64,000 bases of DNA, taken from NCBI GenBank assembly GCA_045606105.1, contig JAZURI010000011.1, forward strand, positions 32,001-96,000, written 5' to 3'. The DNA is from Spirochaetia bacterium. Lineage in GTDB: Bacteria > Spirochaetota > Spirochaetia > CADAEX01. Positions 29,447 to 36,092 of the stretch are shown piece by piece; position 1 is the first letter of the stretch, and each line of letters starts with the position of its first letter. The notes under the pieces were generated by a model. That model made no database searches. It was not told the DNA's origin and saw only the letters and a program-made list of their open reading frames with translations. The translations under genes and the position numbers were made by a program.

Positions 29447-30541
29447 TCAGGCTTCCTTTACTGTCTCATTCTTTGGCTTAGGCTGACTGCGTCTGGCCTT
29501 CAGCTTGAATCCGTTCTTGGACATGATTGTCCTCACCGCATCTATGAGTGCCGCATTAGGTGGAATCATAGGTCTGAGGAAATGCTTGAGGGAATCGATA
29601 ACCTCTGCAAAAGGCATGTTTGCCACATTGTCATAGAAGGTCACTGTTTCCAGGTAGTCGGTAATGAGAGGTTCCACCAGGCTGCCGGTTCTGGCCAGAT
29701 CCAGCTTTCCGTTCTTCTTGTCATTGTCAAAGCTCTCCAGTGTCTGGTAAAAAAGGCTGTTTTTCTGGATTTCGTATACACCCGGCAGGATATACCTGAG
29801 AATGTTCAGCTTTGCAAGACGGCGGAATACCTGGGTTGTGTTCTCCATCTTCATTATCTTGAAAATCTCCTCAGTAAGTCTGGAGGATGAGACATAGAGA
29901 ATCCTGGAGGAATACCTTATCATGCTCAGCTTAAGGAGAAGTGGAATATCACCTCCGATCATCACGGAATACTTGACTGCACGGATAAGCCTTACCGGAT
30001 CCTCCATGAATATGGTACGGAGAGGAATAACCGGTCTTACAATCCTTTTCCTTACATCCTTGTAGCCGCCGATGAAATCAATGATGGTTTCGGAATGGGT
30101 ATCATAGTAAAGGGCATTGATGGAAAAATCCCTGCGCCACACATCCTCCTTCATGGTTCCGAAGCAGTTATTGTCCCCTGCCACGGGAGCATTGGCCCTA
30201 AAGGTGGAAATCTCGTAGATATCCTTTCCCATTATTACATGAACCAGGAGAAATCTTCTTCCGATAATCCTGGCATTCCTGAAAAGCTTCTTTATCTGCT
30301 TTGGGTACGCATCGGTTACAATATCAAAATCCTTAGGCTTGTGTCCTGTAAGAAGATCCCTGACAGCACCGCCCACAATATAGGCCTCGTAGCCTGCATT
30401 CCTGAGCTTGTCACAGATGAAAAGGGCATTGCGGTCTATTATTTCCCTGCCTATGCCGTGATCGTTCTTGTCGTAATATTCTGCAAGACGGACTGCTTTT
30501 CCCCTTGCGTTCTTGTAGTAGCGTACCTTCACAGGGTGCAT
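29447..30541 (-). CDS. pcnB: Poly(A) polymerase I
   Basis: YIVGGAVRDLL, KDFDIVT, PAP-specific signature IIGRRFLLVHV, RRDFSINALYY, EDPVRLIRA; start ATG 30541 or GTG 30532. Confidence 0.88.
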   Translation of the reverse strand: MHPVKVRYYKNARGKAVRLAEYYDKNDHGIGREIIDRNALFICDKLRNAGYEAYIVGGAVRDLLTGHKPKDFDIVTDAYPKQIKKLFRNARIIGRRFLLVHVIMGKDIYEISTFRANAPVAGDNNCFGTMKEDVWRRDFSINALYYDTHSETIIDFIGGYKDVRKRIVRPVIPLRTIFMEDPVRLIRAVKYSVMIGGDIPLLLKLSMIRYSSRILYVSSSRLTEEIFKIMKMENTTQVFRRLAKLNILRYILPGVYEIQKNSLFYQTLESFDNDKKNGKLDLARTGSLVEPLITDYLETVTFYDNVANMPFAEVIDSLKHFLRPMIPPNAALIDAVRTIMSKNGFKLKARRSQPKPKNETVKEA

Positions 30542-30640
30542 TATTTCATATTTTATACATTTGGTAAAGTTAGCCCAAAATTTCTTTTCCATATTGTTAT
30601 AAAAAGAAAATGGGTATATGTTTTTCCTGTAGGTAAAACA

Positions 30641-32464
30641 ATGAATCCCGAAAACATAAGAAATATTGCAATAATAGCCCATGTAGACCATGGAAAGACC
30701 ACCCTTGTGGATGCCATGTTCAGGCAGAGCGGAATGGTTGCCGGCATGGATAAGATGGGCGACAGGATAATGGACAGCGGAGAGATCGAGCGGGAGAGAG
30801 GTATCACCATCTCGGCAAAGAACTGCGAGGTCGTATGGAAGGATACAAAGATAAACATTCTCGACACACCGGGACATGCAGATTTCGGCGGCGAGGTTGA
30901 AAGAGCCCTTTCCATGGTGGACGGAGTGGTACTGCTGGTGGATGCGGCGGAAGGTCCCCTTCCCCAGACAAGATTTGTCCTGCAGAAGGCCCTGTCACTG
31001 GGACTCAGACTTATCATACTGGTAAACAAGATAGACAGGGAGGATGCCCGCCCCGAAGAGGTATACAACGAGGTACTGGAGCTGCTTCTGGAGCTGGAGG
31101 CAGATGATTCCTACCTGGATTCTCCGGTTCTCTATGCCAACGGAAGAAGAGGTATTGCAAAAAGAAGCCTTGAGGATGAATCGGACAACCTGGCTCCTCT
31201 CATGGATACTGTGGTGGAGCATATTCCGGCCCCGGAATGCAGCCCTGAGGAGCCTTTCAGTATGGTGGTGGCAGATCTTGATTATTCCGATTATCTGGGC
31301 CGCATGGCTATCGGCAAGATCAAGGGAGGCCGCGTTTCCCTCAACGACAGGCTGGTAAGCATCGGTGCCGGAAATGCGGTAAAGCCCATAAAGGTATCCC
31401 AGCTGCAGGTCTACAAGGGAACATCCCTGGAGCCGGCAGATTCGGTTTCGGCCGGAGATATTGTCATCATGGCAGGTGTCAGCGACATCTTTATCGGAGA
31501 TACCATCTGCAGCGCCGCCGAACCGAAGGCATTGCCGAGGATAGAAATAGATGAGCCTACTGTTTCCATGAGATTTCTTCCTAACTCCTCTCCCCTTTCG
31601 GGCAGGGAAGGAAAAATCGTACAGGGAAGCAAGATTCTAGAAAGACTCAGAAAAGAGGGGCTGCGTAATGTTGCCCTCCAGATAGAGGAGGCCACCGATA
31701 ACGAAGGGGGCTATATAGTAAAGGGAAGAGGCGAATTCCAGATGGCCATCCTTATCGAGACCATGAGGAGGGAGGGCTTTGAATTCTGTGTGGGCAGACC
31801 TAAGGTAATCTTCAGGACCGACAGCAACGGAAAAAAGCTGGAGCCGATGGAAAGGGTCACAATCAGCGTCAGCAAGGATTATGCCGGAGTGGTTTCCGAA
31901 ACCCTGATGCAGAGAAAGGGAATAATAGAAAACTATTCATCAGCCCAGGGGGATCATGTAATCATGGAATTTGCCATTCCGTCCAGATCTCTTATCGGAT
32001 ACAGGGACAAGTTCCTTACAGATACAAAGGGAACAGGAATAATGAACTCCTATTTCACAGGCTACGGAGAATACAAGGGTGACTTTGCCTCAAGACTGAC
32101 AGGCTCATTGGTAGCAGACAGAAGCGGAGAGGCAGTGGCTTACGGAATCTTCAACCTGGAGCCGAGAGGAAAGATGTTCATTGTACCGGGAGATCCGGTT
32201 TACGAAGGAATGATCGTAGGAGAACACAACAGGGAATATGACCTTTACCTGAACCCGACAAAAACCAAGCAGCTTTCAAACATGAGAGCCTCAGGAAAGG
32301 ACACCAACGTTATCCTTACACCGGTGCTTCCCATGACACCGGAAAGAGCCCTGAACCTGATCCGGGATGACGAGCTGGTGGAAATAACTCCCCTTTCGGT
32401 ACGACTCAGAAAAAAGATCCTGAGCCGTCTTGAAAGAAAAAAGACTGAACGCTTCGAGGATTAA
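30641..32464 (+). CDS. typA: Translational GTPase TypA/BipA
   Basis: IRNIAIIAHVDHGKTTLVD, ERERGITI, DTPGHADFGGEVER, NKID, DELVEITP; start at ATG 30641. Confidence 0.97.
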   Translation: MNPENIRNIAIIAHVDHGKTTLVDAMFRQSGMVAGMDKMGDRIMDSGEIERERGITISAKNCEVVWKDTKINILDTPGHADFGGEVERALSMVDGVVLLVDAAEGPLPQTRFVLQKALSLGLRLIILVNKIDREDARPEEVYNEVLELLLELEADDSYLDSPVLYANGRRGIAKRSLEDESDNLAPLMDTVVEHIPAPECSPEEPFSMVVADLDYSDYLGRMAIGKIKGGRVSLNDRLVSIGAGNAVKPIKVSQLQVYKGTSLEPADSVSAGDIVIMAGVSDIFIGDTICSAAEPKALPRIEIDEPTVSMRFLPNSSPLSGREGKIVQGSKILERLRKEGLRNVALQIEEATDNEGGYIVKGRGEFQMAILIETMRREGFEFCVGRPKVIFRTDSNGKKLEPMERVTISVSKDYAGVVSETLMQRKGIIENYSSAQGDHVIMEFAIPSRSLIGYRDKFLTDTKGTGIMNSYFTGYGEYKGDFASRLTGSLVADRSGEAVAYGIFNLEPRGKMFIVPGDPVYEGMIVGEHNREYDLYLNPTKTKQLSNMRASGKDTNVILTPVLPMTPERALNLIRDDELVEITPLSVRLRKKILSRLERKKTERFED

Positions 32465-34589
32465 CCCTTTTTAACAGACCTGTATTTCCTGAGCCTGAGA
32501 GCATTGGTCACCACCGACAGGGATGATAACGACATGGCTGCGGCTGCCAGCATAGGATTGAGAAGGATTCCTGTAAAGGGATACAGGATACCGGCAGCAA
32601 TGGGAAGCCCCAGCACATTGTAGCCGAATGCCCAGATAAGGTTCTGCTTGATATTGCCCATGACATGGCGGCTCAGGTTAACAGCCTCGCTTACTCCTCT
32701 GATATCGTCACTTACAAGAACTATGTGGGCCAGATCCTTGGTACAGTCGGCCCCGGCACCCACAGCAATGCTGACATCAGCTTCAGCCATGGCTACCGCA
32801 TCGTTTATACCGTCTCCTGCCATTGCAATGACAGAATTGTCCTTTTTCCATTTTTTCAGTCTGGAAGCCTTGTCCTCAGGCAGCATTGAGGCATGGAATT
32901 CCTCTATACCCACCTGCTCTGAAACAACGGCTGCACTTTTCCTGTTGTCCCCTGTAAGAAGAACCGGCTTGATTCCGTGCTCCTTCAGCCATTCCACAGC
33001 TTCACGGCTTTCAGGCTTGACCACATCGGAAAGAGCTATTATTCCGGCAAATCTTGAATCCACAGCCACATAGATAAGGGTCTTGCCCTGGTTATAGAGC
33101 GCCTCTTCTCCCTTGAAGCTGATTTTTACCTTGTTTTCCTCCAGGAAGCCCCGGTTTCCTACCAGAAGACTTTTTTCTCCGGCATTACATCTGATTCCCT
33201 TACCGGTAACCGAATTGAAATGGGATACCTGATACGGAGTTATATTCTTTTCCGAGGCATGGTTCACCACTGCACTTCCCAGGGGATGCTCCGAGTCCTT
33301 TTCCGCCCCTGCAGCCAGGGCCAGAAACTCGTTTTTATCCATTCCGTCGGTTATGATATCGGTAACAAAAGGCTTTCCCTTTGTCAGGGTACCGGTCTTG
33401 TCAAAGGCAACAGTTCTGACAGATGACAGGGTTTCGAATACTGCGGCATTCTTGAAAAGGAGTCCCAGCTCGGAGCCGCGGCCTATTCCTGTAATTACAG
33501 CCACCGGAGTAGCCAGACCGAGAGAGCATGGGCAGGCCATTACCAGAACCGAAACAAAAATCCTTACTACAAAATCTATTTCTTTTCCGACAAAGAACCA
33601 TATTCCGGCTGCAACCAGGGCAAAGGCCATAACAGCAACGGTAAACCAGCCCGATACCTTGTCGGCCAGACGGGCAATTTCAGGCTTGGAGCTCTGGGCC
33701 TTTTCCACCATGGAAATGATACCGGCCAGAACTGTGTCCCGCCCTACCTTTTCGGCACGGAAACGGAAACTTCCATTAAGGTTTATGGTTCCTCCGATAA
33801 CCTTTTCACCCGGCTTTTTCTCCACCGGCATGCTTTCTCCGGTAAGAAGAGCCTCGTCCACATGGGAGAAGCCCTCGGTTACCACACCGTCAACAGCGAT
33901 TCTGTTTCCCGGCTTCACAACCACTATATCTCCGGGAAAAATATCGTAGGAAAAAACCTCGGTTTCAACACTTCCCCTGAGAACCGTAACCTTGTCGGGA
34001 ATAAGGTCGGTAAGCTTCCGGAGTGCATCACCGGTTCTGGCTACCGAAACGCTTTCAAGATACTTTCCGAACATCACCAGGGTAATGATTACCGCCACAC
34101 TGTCGAAATAACCGTAGAAAAAGGAGGCCGTGGTACTGACAGCCACAAGACTGTCCATATTAGGTGAAAAGCGGAGAAGATTTCTGTAGCCTTTGATATA
34201 GAAGCTCCTCCCGATAATCATTACGGGAACAGCTAAAAGAAACGAAAAGATTTTTACCATATTTCCGGGAAGATCCAGAAACATGGAACTCATTGAAAGA
34301 AGGAAAAGGGGAACCGTAAAAAGAAAAACTGAAACAAGCCTTGTTTTAGCCTGCTTCAGTTCTTTTTTTTTTCACCCTCTATATCTTCGACAACAGTAAA
34401 GCCTGCTGCCTCAATAGTTTCGCGGAACTTGTCCACAGAAACTTTTTTTTCATTATATTCTATTTCTGCCTTTGCAGCTGCAAGATTAACCGAAACCGAT
34501 ATAACTCCATCAAGTTTACCAAGTACCCTTTCACAAGCCGAAGAACATCCGGCACAACGCATTCCTGCAATCTGCAATGTAGTTTTCAT
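32461..34589 (-). CDS. copA: Cu(+)-type P1B ATPase; full-length product requires a -1 frameshift at 34362-34372
   Basis: TGES, CPC, DKTGT, HP, GDGIND, YN, MSLSS in the 32461-34293 frame. That frame is open up to the A10 run (ELKQAKTRLVSVFLFTVPLFLLSM = first TM helix) and joins the upstream HMA-domain ORF by a -1 shift. Confidence 0.85.
34318..34372 (-). other. Candidate -1 slippery site (A10 / A_AAA_AAG) plus 14-bp stem-loop and U-tract
   Basis: Minus strand A10-G-AACTGAAGCAGGCT-AAAACAA-GGCTTGTTTCAGTT-TTTCTTTTT. Confidence 0.7.
34356..34589 (-). CDS. copZ: Heavy-metal-associated domain protein, CopZ-like (zero-frame product of copA)
   Basis: 77 aa, GMRCAGC metal-binding motif, VSVNLA, IEAAGF. 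Confidence 0.8.
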   Translation of the reverse strand: MKTTLQIAGMRCAGCSSACERVLGKLDGVISVSVNLAAAKAEIEYNEKKVSVDKFRETIEAAGFTVVEDIEGEKKKN

Positions 34590-34611
34590 ATCTTTAATTT
34601 AGCAGAAATAC

Positions 34612-34650
34612 AAAAAAAAAGCAACATTCCGCAAGGAAATGTTGCCTTTT
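34612..34650 (-). terminator. Intrinsic terminator after glnA
   Basis: Minus strand GCAACATTTCC-TTGC-GGAATGTTGC followed by T9. Confidence 0.85.
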
Positions 34651-34667
34651 ATCAATTTTAGAACAAA

Positions 34668-36092
34668 TCAGCAGTTGAAGTAGGAGTCAAATTCTGCAGG
34701 ATGCGGAATCTGATTGATCTTCATAACTTCTGCTCTCTTTGTCTTGATGAAGTTTTTAATAAGTTCTTCAGGGAATACTCCGCCTGCTGTCAGGTAGTCA
34801 TGATCCTTCTCAAGAGCTGTAAGTGCATCTTCAAGGCGTGTAGGAAGCTGCTTGAGCTTTGCCTTCTGCTTCTCAGGGAGATTGTAAAGGTTGAAATCGA
34901 AAGGACCCCATCCGTTTGCCTTAGGATCGATCTTGTTCTTGATTCCGTCAAGACCTGCCATAAGGATTGCAGCATAAGCGAAATATGGGTTACATGTTGC
35001 ATCAGGGTTTCTGATTTCGAAACGGCGCATCTTAGGTGTCTTTGCATAAGCAGGGATACGGATTACAGCTGAGCGGTTTGATGTGGCATAACCAACTGTT
35101 ACAGGTGCCTCGAAGCCCGGTACAAGTCTCTTGAATGAGTTTGTGCTTGGGTTTGTGATGGCACAGAGTGAGTTGATGTGCTTGAGAAGACCGCCGATGA
35201 AGTAATGAGCTGTCTCGCTGAGATGTGAATATCCGTTGTCATCTGAGAAAACCGGTTCTCCGTCCTTGAGGAGGAGCATGTGGACATGCATACCGCTTCC
35301 TGCTTCGCCGAATACAGGCTTTGGCATGAAGGTTGCAGTCTTTCCGTATTTTGCAGCAACGTTGCGGATGATGTACTTGATGTTCATTGTAGCATCTGCC
35401 ATCTTTGACATAGGTCCCAGCTTAGGCTCGATCTCGAACTGTCCGGAAGCACCAACTTCAGGATGATGATATTTTACCTCAACACCTGTCTTTTCGATTT
35501 CAAGACACATTTCGCTTCTTGCATCGTAGCTTGTATCGAGAGGCTTTGCAATGTGATAGGCCTTCTGGTGTCCGATTACGTTTCCGAGACCTTCTGTTGC
35601 TGTATTCCAAGGAGCCTGCTCTGAATCAACGGCTGCACTGATATTGTTATGGCTTACTTCCCAGGCTGCTTCGTCAAAAAGATAGAACTCGAATTCAGGA
35701 AGAATCATCATTGTGTCTGCAATACCTGTATCCTTCATGTACTGCTCTGCCGCACGTACGATGTTTCTTGGGTACTGTGCCAGAGGACGGTTGTTAGGAT
35801 AGTCGATGATCATTGCGTTTCCTGTCATGGAAAGAGTAGGAATTTCGCAGAACGGGTCGATGAGTGCTGTGTCCGGGTCCGGAATGAAAACCATGTCTGA
35901 TTTTTCAACAACCGCATAACCGTAGTTTGATGCATCAAATCCGATTCCTTCCTTGAGGATATCTTCATTGAAGTGGTTAGCAGGAATTGTTACATGGCGG
36001 TACTGACCGTTGATATCCACCATCTTAAAGTCTACCATTTTGATGTCATTGGCCTTGATAAGCTCAATAATATCTTTTGCTGTTTTTGCCAT
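34668..36092 (-). CDS. glnA: Glutamine synthetase type I
   Basis: GFDASN, HHPEV..GQFEI, TFMPKP, GSGMHVH, KRLVPGFEAP, NRSAVIRIP, NLY adenylylation-site motif. Confidence 0.96.
   Translation of the reverse strand: MAKTAKDIIELIKANDIKMVDFKMVDINGQYRHVTIPANHFNEDILKEGIGFDASNYGYAVVEKSDMVFIPDPDTALIDPFCEIPTLSMTGNAMIIDYPNNRPLAQYPRNIVRAAEQYMKDTGIADTMMILPEFEFYLFDEAAWEVSHNNISAAVDSEQAPWNTATEGLGNVIGHQKAYHIAKPLDTSYDARSEMCLEIEKTGVEVKYHHPEVGASGQFEIEPKLGPMSKMADATMNIKYIIRNVAAKYGKTATFMPKPVFGEAGSGMHVHMLLLKDGEPVFSDDNGYSHLSETAHYFIGGLLKHINSLCAITNPSTNSFKRLVPGFEAPVTVGYATSNRSAVIRIPAYAKTPKMRRFEIRNPDATCNPYFAYAAILMAGLDGIKNKIDPKANGWGPFDFNLYNLPEKQKAKLKQLPTRLEDALTALEKDHDYLTAGGVFPEELIKNFIKTKRAEVMKINQIPHPAEFDSYFNC

Follow-up and report, generated by a model that had tools for sequence, protein, structure and literature searches.

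The closest described counterparts of the gene analyzed here are bacterial genes with recoded expression. In passages of Atkins 2016 and Loughran 2022, Escherichia coli copA is described as making CopA(Z) by programmed −1 ribosomal frameshifting. Passages of Antonov 2013 and Atkins 2016 describe transcriptional slippage on an A9 run in Thermus thermophilus dnaX, mention "reversed" dnaX genes made of two open reading frames (ORFs) with A10, the long product of which depends on the shift, and hold that runs of 9 A or T slip efficiently in bacteria. Atkins 2016 also recounts that frameshifted genes of Buchnera and Blochmannia are rescued at poly(A) tracts, with 12-50% of transcripts corrected. 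Programmed transcriptional realignment further gives rise to transposases of insertion sequence (IS) elements (Sharma 2011 and Baranov 2005, according to summaries in other papers). Here we describe a copA gene on the minus strand of a 64,000-nt stretch of DNA from a Spirochaetia bacterium (assembly GCA_045606105.1, contig JAZURI010000011.1, positions 32,001 to 96,000; the window, to whose numbering the positions below refer), in which a CopZ-like frame and the frame of a Cu(I) pump meet at a run of ten A's (A10). The logic is inverted relative to E. coli copA, as a first-pass annotation of the window had proposed: the CopZ-like protein is the default, and the pump of about 709 aa needs recoding. 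Recoding at the run is very likely both required and conserved. The best explanation, which we favor with modest confidence, is that copA is permanently out of frame at A10, in the linker that joins its single metal-binding domain to the first membrane helix, and that the pump would be obtained by RNA polymerase slippage, which would turn A10 into A11 in the mRNA.

A copA gene split at an A10 run

On the minus strand the junction reads ...GAG GGT GAA AAA AAA AAG AAC TGA; the coordinates and sequence statements of the first-pass annotation were all found in the DNA. The features that define the split are as follows.

34356..34589, minus strand: zero-frame ORF of 77 aa, an HMA (CopZ-like) protein with GMRCAGC, ending GEKKKN-stop; the default product
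34363..34372, minus strand: A10 run (T10 on the plus strand), the presumed recoding site, ending in the in-frame heptamer A_AAA_AAG (34368-34362)
34372..34374, minus strand: TGA closing the ATPase (−1) frame, directly 5' of the run, with no start codon in between
34356..34358, minus strand: zero-frame stop TGA, two codons past the run, at the same position in the two orthologues from congeners
34346..34348, minus strand: third-frame stop TAA, five codons past the run; the third frame reads TEAG-stop, AEAG-stop, and TESC-stop in the three species
34291..34362, minus strand: 24 ATPase-frame codons, ELKQAKTRLVSVFLFTVPLFLLSM, comprising the end of the linker and the first transmembrane helix (MA), with no ATG, GTG, or TTG before the final ATG
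32461..34371, minus strand: frame of the ATPase, a P1B enzyme of the Cu(I) type; 636 aa counted from the run, with the stop at 32463-32461

Fusion of the frames through the run would give a product of 73 + 636 = 709 aa. The first ATG of the ATPase frame after the run is at 34293; gene callers start there, which gives 610 aa.

The 77-aa ORF matches HMA (Pfam, 9.2e-17) and covers positions 1-65 of the 66 in the NCBIfam CopZ model (Bacillus-type), with 70.7 bits, below the cut-off of 91. The −1 frame contains the Pfam domains E1-E2_ATPase (9.1e-57) and HAD hydrolase (Hydrolase, 3.8e-34), scores 568.5 bits against the copper-translocating model TIGR01511 (cut-off, 397), and has Legionella CopA (3RFU) as its best solved relative (9.5e-144). 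P1B-1 Cu(I) ATPases carry the signature CPC in transmembrane helix 4 (TM4), DKTGT, YN in TM5, and MxxSS in TM6, and the translation shows ACPCS, FDKTGT, GYNVLG, AMSLSS, and GDGxND. By its core domains, family cut-off, and signature motifs alike, the ATPase is predicted to be of the P1B-1 Cu(I)-exporting type (CopA). It departs from that type in one respect: HMA, MA, and the core do not share a frame, HMA being in the zero frame and MA and the core in the −1 frame. No other P1B ATPase and no other HMA domain was matched in the genome.

The genome of the window (G000; 1.46 Mb, 11 contigs, 46% G+C) was compared with the other genomes of its genus (9 species genomes in the collection) and family (20 genomes). 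Two congeners, G005 (81% protein identity) and G001 (57%), carry split orthologues. In all three genomes, which differ strongly in contiguity (11, 50, and ~240 contigs), A10 is followed by G, a zero-frame TGA lies two codons on, and the ATPase is in the −1 frame; in the two congeners, a stop closes the ATPase frame 5 codons ahead of the three Lys codons of the run, with no start codon between. The remaining congeners have a different CopA, ~45% identical and 816-861 aa long, in a single frame, and no further split-type copA was present among the 20 family genomes. A metagenome scan yielded no additional orthologues of the split clade; all 80 loci were at most 48% identical and were in-frame outgroups only. 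HMA and ATPase share one frame in 83 of the 86 homologous loci that could be assessed.

Contigs from other data sets also cross the run without an indel. These are X1, a DNA contig from another study with 4 substitutions; X5, a DNA contig from a further study that has 7 substitutions and, upstream of the gene, 2 indels; and X13, from an Illumina metatranscriptome library, which reads A10. In a clustered database of 5.8 billion proteins, only four ATPase clusters were at least 56% identical (607, 610, 614, and 536 aa), all without HMA. The next matches, at 51% identity or less, were HMA fused and named mostly as Clostridia, and no fused close relative of the split CopA was listed in that database. 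The HMA query returned three clusters, each exactly 77 aa long and ending EKKKN or EKKKS, two of which depart from the compared genomes at one or two residues and so represent further strains. The database names of the pieces are "cation transporter" and "cadmium-translocating P-type ATPase."

These data establish that the split is genuine and conserved, and they bear out the view of the first-pass annotation that it is not an assembly error, since the same break at A10 is present in 3/3 orthologues and in X1, X5, and X13. Homopolymers are error prone on some platforms and the evidence here comes from assembled contigs rather than raw reads, which would leave room for a true A11; the recurrence of A10 in three genomes of differing contiguity, two other DNA studies, and one Illumina RNA library, together with a split in protein clusters from several archives, makes such an error scarcely credible. 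Homopolymer tracts are also classic contingency loci, at which replication slippage changes tract length in the DNA and would here switch the pump on and off within a population. This form of phase variation is highly improbable, as three species, three contigs from other data sets, and seven protein clusters all show copA either with A10 or split. The constancy of A10 and of the split across genomes, assemblies, and protein clusters thus renders both explanations very unlikely. The split copA may have entered the sub-lineage by horizontal transfer, a suggestion that draws on the mostly clostridial names of the nearest fused relatives and on the different CopA of the congeners.

Both parts of the gene are under selection. 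Synonymous differences (pS) amount to 0.61 between G000 and G005 and 0.84 against G001 (saturated), and nonsynonymous differences (pN) in HMA are 0.10-0.20. In the 24-codon MA segment, pN/pS between G000 and G005 is 0.171/0.645 in the ATPase frame, versus 0.346/0.218 in one of the alternative frames and 0.329/0.279 in the other. Because the segment is constrained in the ATPase frame only, it is translated in that frame; it aligns with residues 84-100 of Legionella CopA (3RFU), the first membrane helix. In none of the three species does an ATG, GTG, or TTG follow the −1-frame stop ahead of MA, and the ATG at which gene callers begin corresponds to a Met that fused homologues conserve internally (IAMAPM). 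The pump therefore requires recoding at the run, because MA is constrained in a frame that has no start codon and is closed upstream. As predicted from these sequences, it is obtainable only if the HMA frame is left for the −1 frame at the run or beside it. The TGA directly before the run agrees with the earlier claim that the shift is confined to it. With purifying selection on both parts, and as the sole source of a P1B ATPase and of an HMA domain in the genome, copA is not decaying.

The alternative that the locus holds two separate genes, a copZ that ends at the TGA and a shortened pump that starts at ATG 34293 (610 aa) or by reinitiation at a CTG overlapping the TGA behind an A-rich leader, is very unlikely. 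Databases do annotate 607-614-aa ATPases and 77-aa HMA proteins apart, the zero-frame TGA does overlap a CTG codon in 3/3 species, and P1B ATPases without N-terminal metal-binding domains exist. A start at the ATG, however, would remove the constrained helix MA. None of the three species has an ATG, GTG, or TTG upstream of MA, and the CTG has been retained although the synonymous TTG would start better.

Transcriptional slippage and ribosomal frameshifting as possible mechanisms

With faithful transcription and translation, the gene would yield the 77-aa CopZ-like copper-binding protein. If RNA polymerase slipped on A10/T10 and one A was added, the frames would be joined and the 709-aa Cu(I) pump would be made; loss of two A's would likewise join them. 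Slips into the third frame would meet a stop five codons later, so that A9 or A12 transcripts would also yield a short CopZ-like product, of ~80 aa. A single gene would then supply much chaperone and little pump, in a ratio set by how often slippage occurs. The identical pump protein (...GEKKKELKQAK...) would result from a −1 shift of the ribosome on A_AAA_AAG, which may contribute, especially in G000 with its strong hairpin. Since the ribosomal −1 shift and the insertion of one A give the same protein, sequence context must discriminate between the mechanisms.

The A10 run is the only element at the site that is invariant across the three species. The 1.46-Mb genome has four A/T runs of 10 nt, the longest there, and only that of copA lies in a coding context. 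AAA is the minority codon for Lys (usage, 0.365 in 592 long ORFs), and from codon usage GAA AAA AAA AAG would be expected in ~0.049 of E-K-K-K strings per lineage, whereas it is observed invariantly. With the threshold for slippage taken from review passages as ~9 nt, the frame junction carries an A/T run of at least that length, and the full run is conserved despite a pS of 0.61-0.85. Stops close to the run, within 2 and 5 codons, are kept in both other frames in 3/3 species.

The first-pass annotation had read the site mainly as a dnaX-type −1 ribosomal signal and had mentioned transcriptional slippage second. Three features bear on the ribosomal reading.

34324..34364, minus strand: sense-strand RNA hairpin, its stem of 15-17 bp (three or four of them G-U) closed by a loop of 7 nt, beginning at the last base of the heptamer
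34318..34328, minus strand: U5CU5 tract, which overlaps and then extends past the 3' arm of the hairpin; not conserved in G005 or G001
34375..34379, minus strand: Shine-Dalgarno (SD)-like GAGGG, 6 nt before the heptamer; G000 only

Programmed −1 frameshifting of the dnaX type, stimulated by GAGGG and the hairpin, is unlikely to be the main route to CopA. In its favor, the in-frame A_AAA_AAG is found in 3/3 species, and in G000 it is preceded by GAGGG and followed by a very stable hairpin: the 15-bp stem has −19.5 kcal/mol (z score, −4.06; 0/200 shuffles as stable), and with flanks the value is −31.8 kcal/mol (z score, −3.58). The same region is unremarkable in the relatives, with z scores of +0.14 in G005 (104/200 shuffles as stable) and −1.26 in G001 (19/200), and the three-sequence consensus fold is weak (−5.28 kcal/mol, with a covariation term of +1.89, positive values being penalizing). 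An apparent covariation in the stem, one A-U to G-C change with the 3' arm shifted by 3 nt in G005, was discounted on account of the three sequences and the positive term. Known −1 frameshift stimulators sit about 5-9 nt downstream, whereas the spacer between hairpin and heptamer is 0 nt here. The counterparts of GAGGG are GAAGGCG in G005 and GAAGAAG in G001. ARAGORN finds both tRNA-Lys(CUU) and tRNA-Lys(UUU) encoded in G000. Passages of Atkins 2016 attribute the tendency of AAG to shift in E. coli to the presence of only one Lys tRNA there, note that tRNA-Lys(CUU) pairs tightly with AAG, and suggest the presence of two Lys tRNAs as the reason why Thermus dnaX uses polymerase slippage. The locus thus has the dnaX-type heptamer but neither a conserved downstream structure with a spacer nor a conserved SD-like stimulator, and tRNA-Lys(UUU) is not the only Lys tRNA of the genome. 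Conservation of all 10 nt, and not merely of the 7 in the heptamer, also argues against a ribosomal signal.

Transcriptional slippage is favored because only the full A10 run is invariant, the hairpin and the SD-like motif are unconserved, and tRNA-Lys(CUU) is present. Of the two mechanisms named in the first-pass annotation, then, the invariant A10 supports the one it mentioned second, and its main dnaX reading did not hold up: the hairpin is specific to G000 and has no spacer, GAGGG is not conserved, and tRNA-Lys(CUU) is encoded. The alignment of orthologues that it had recommended turned out the same way, with the split and the slippery site conserved and no support for a conserved hairpin or compensatory stem changes. 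On this context, polymerase slippage is a reasonably probable main route to CopA. We infer slippage, and slippage by RNA polymerase rather than by the ribosome, together with a chaperone role for the short product.

Several observations weigh against this interpretation. The sole contig from an RNA library that crosses the run, X13, reads A10; contigs drop minority variants, and the library may contain DNA, so that this reading counts neither for nor against slippage. In G000, the run ends in a textbook in-frame A_AAA_AAG with a strong hairpin directly after it. The three species with the gene are related, and statistics of conservation overstate their independence. The putative chaperone role of the 77-aa product is suggested by domain content only. 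In a second RNA library, X20, two contigs end on either side of the run and hairpin (34349 and 34398) at a depth of ~4; this gap could be a graph bubble from length heterogeneity or could come from mere low depth, and it was given no weight for either side.

The hairpin is not part of the core device, because it is not conserved. A terminator scan lists it with 17 pairs, and the scan found 3 terminator-like sites versus 3.2 expected from shuffles. Together with U5CU5, the hairpin resembles an intragenic site of intrinsic termination or pausing, one that is unconserved in relatives. In G000 it may contribute some ribosomal frameshifting; alternatively, by stopping or pausing transcription within the gene, it may enrich for mRNA that carries copZ alone. 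Differential transcript formation in E. coli copA is mentioned in the title of Drees 2017.

Upstream lies a glnA-like gene (34668-36092, minus strand) whose end carries a hairpin of terminator type and T9 (34650-34616), and only ~26 nt separate this element from the HMA start codon. No sigma-70-like promoter was found in a scan of 34590-34667 upstream of HMA, and there is no obvious SD sequence there either; the copA transcript may have a very short leader or may originate by read-through from upstream. Downstream, the ATPase stop overlaps by 4 nt (32461-32464) the end of a convergent TypA/BipA-like GTPase ORF (30095-32464, plus strand). As listed, this ORF has 789 aa, and its true start is probably later than the first ATG.

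Long A runs at other junctions and in related linkers

A genome-wide screen for A/T runs of at least 8 nt at ORF junctions yielded copA, a gene for an LCP protein, one A9 between phage-like ORFs, and five A8/T8 cases. The LCP junction lies outside the window, at an A9 (G000:C2:176701-176709, equal to L113:901-909, minus strand). Its N-terminal ORF of 368 aa ends ...SSVKKN-stop, and the LCP domain (LytR_cpsA_psr, PF03816, 3.2e-27) continues in the −1 frame with no start codon before it. Among the 20 family genomes searched, a poly(A) run occupies this junction in all 18 that have the gene, as A9 in 9/9 genomes of the genus and as A10-A12 in the other three genera. Of the 17 genomes that could be scored, 15 have the two parts out of frame, each time in the −1 relation, and the other two have them in frame (G018 and G010; A11 and A12). 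Because these two genomes carry both parts in one 676-aa frame, the N-terminal ORF and the domain constitute one gene.

The LCP junction also bears on the other explanations for copA. Its variation in tract length between genera, from 9 to 12, and the two in-frame genomes fit phase variation, yet 15/15 out-of-frame genomes share the −1 relation, with no mix of off-frames. An arrangement as two separate genes would be unworkable, as the domain would lose its membrane anchor. The run is extended by a Val GTA codon (usage, 0.317) in 9/9 genomes of the genus, an extension that a ribosomal heptamer does not need and that speaks against ribosomal frameshifting. The junction is probably a family-wide site of polymerase slippage, to judge from its sequence. 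Since it looks like an established use of slippage in the family, the same reading of copA becomes more credible.

Long A runs are also found where no frame is broken. The linker between HMA and MA is often Lys rich in the 83 in-frame homologues, 28 of which have an A run of at least 7 nt and 8 of which have A8. Two metagenome contigs carry longer in-frame runs at the homologous linker, A10 at L042:1500-1509 (CGA AAA AAA AAA GAA) and A9 at L083:1495-1503; these CopA homologues are ~43-46% identical, with stops nearby in their other frames. On the evidence of these sequences, the out-of-frame state is one deletion away from a common ancestral state. In the two homologues with long in-frame runs, the opposite polarity would be expected, with the pump as the default and an HMA-only product by slippage.

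The ease of such a deletion, with runs of 7-10 nt being common in the linker, is also an argument for unprogrammed slippage, in which a one-base deletion in the Lys-rich linker was fixed in a reduced genome and tolerated, the short product being a by-product. The small genome of 1.46 Mb fits this account, and insect endosymbionts offer a precedent (Atkins 2016). We regard it as improbable, given that the out-of-frame state has outlasted synonymous saturation in three species with no reversion in assemblies or clusters, that close stops have been maintained in both other frames in 3/3 species, and that the genome has no other HMA protein. These arguments speak against the account and do not prove an adaptive role.

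Slippage at poly(A) may be a standing expression device for ordinary chromosomal genes in these gut spirochaetes, family-wide in the LCP gene and in one sub-lineage in copA, with the HMA-MA linker serving as a "slippage dial" of both polarities for the chaperone-to-pump stoichiometry. This extension is tentative, and we put its chances at somewhat less than even.

Three further homopolymers were seen in the genome. The A9 at G000:C1:69727-69735 (L119:1628-1636, minus strand) is near the end of a 406-aa ORF and is followed by a long open −1 frame leading into a 419-aa ORF; the sequences are phage-like, and the ORFs are probably just neighboring genes. A G13 run (G000:C5:226-238) and a G10 run (G000:C7:1011-1020) lie near contig ends and could be phase-variable tracts or artifacts of assembly ends.

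Comparison with known recoding systems

Like dnaX, this copA has a long A run, close stops in both alternative frames, a genome with two Lys tRNAs, and products that share an N terminus, and as in the two-ORF dnaX genes the short product is the default and the long product needs the shift. It differs from dnaX in gene family and in purpose. As in Buchnera and Blochmannia, chromosomal, nonmobile genes are out of frame at long A tracts in a small genome. There, however, the unshifted product is deemed useless; its spirochaete counterpart constitutes an entire, conserved metal-binding domain, and the genome has no other HMA protein. Slippage on an A run that fuses two ORFs, with the upstream ORF alone as the default, is shared with IS transposases, but copA is a housekeeping gene of metal homeostasis and not a mobile element, and no transposase lies nearby.

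The locus is a variant of known recoding, found in a copper ATPase, and its proposed mechanism has precedent in dnaX. No report of a slippage-dependent copA or P-type ATPase was found in the literature searched, and one may be among the clusters tabulated by Antonov 2013 and Sharma 2011. The main texts of the dnaX papers are silent on metal ATPases; in Antonov 2013, "ATPase" and "metal" have 0 occurrences. If the proposed mechanism is correct, copA would be a conserved, nonmobile gene of a nonendosymbiont bacterium whose main enzyme product depends on slippage. Annotation pipelines split or truncate such genes, and the LCP case represents the same blind spot throughout a family. The gene would also be a natural system for asking how a fixed rate of slippage sets protein stoichiometry.

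E. coli copA, whose programmed −1 ribosomal frameshifting to CopA(Z) is reportedly the subject of Meydan et al. 2017 and Drees et al. 2017, resembles the present gene in that one gene gives rise to a small protein with the first metal-binding domain and to the full pump, with the site just past that domain. E. coli makes the pump in the zero frame and obtains the 70-aa chaperone by the shift, which takes place on the ribosome. In the spirochaete, by contrast, the short protein would come without any shift and the pump only with one, the junction is a homopolymer of 10 nt, and the evidence is better for transcriptional slippage than for a ribosomal event. If this interpretation is correct, the spirochaete gene would be a second, mechanistically independent solution to making a chaperone plus a pump, with a default opposite to that of E. 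coli copA.

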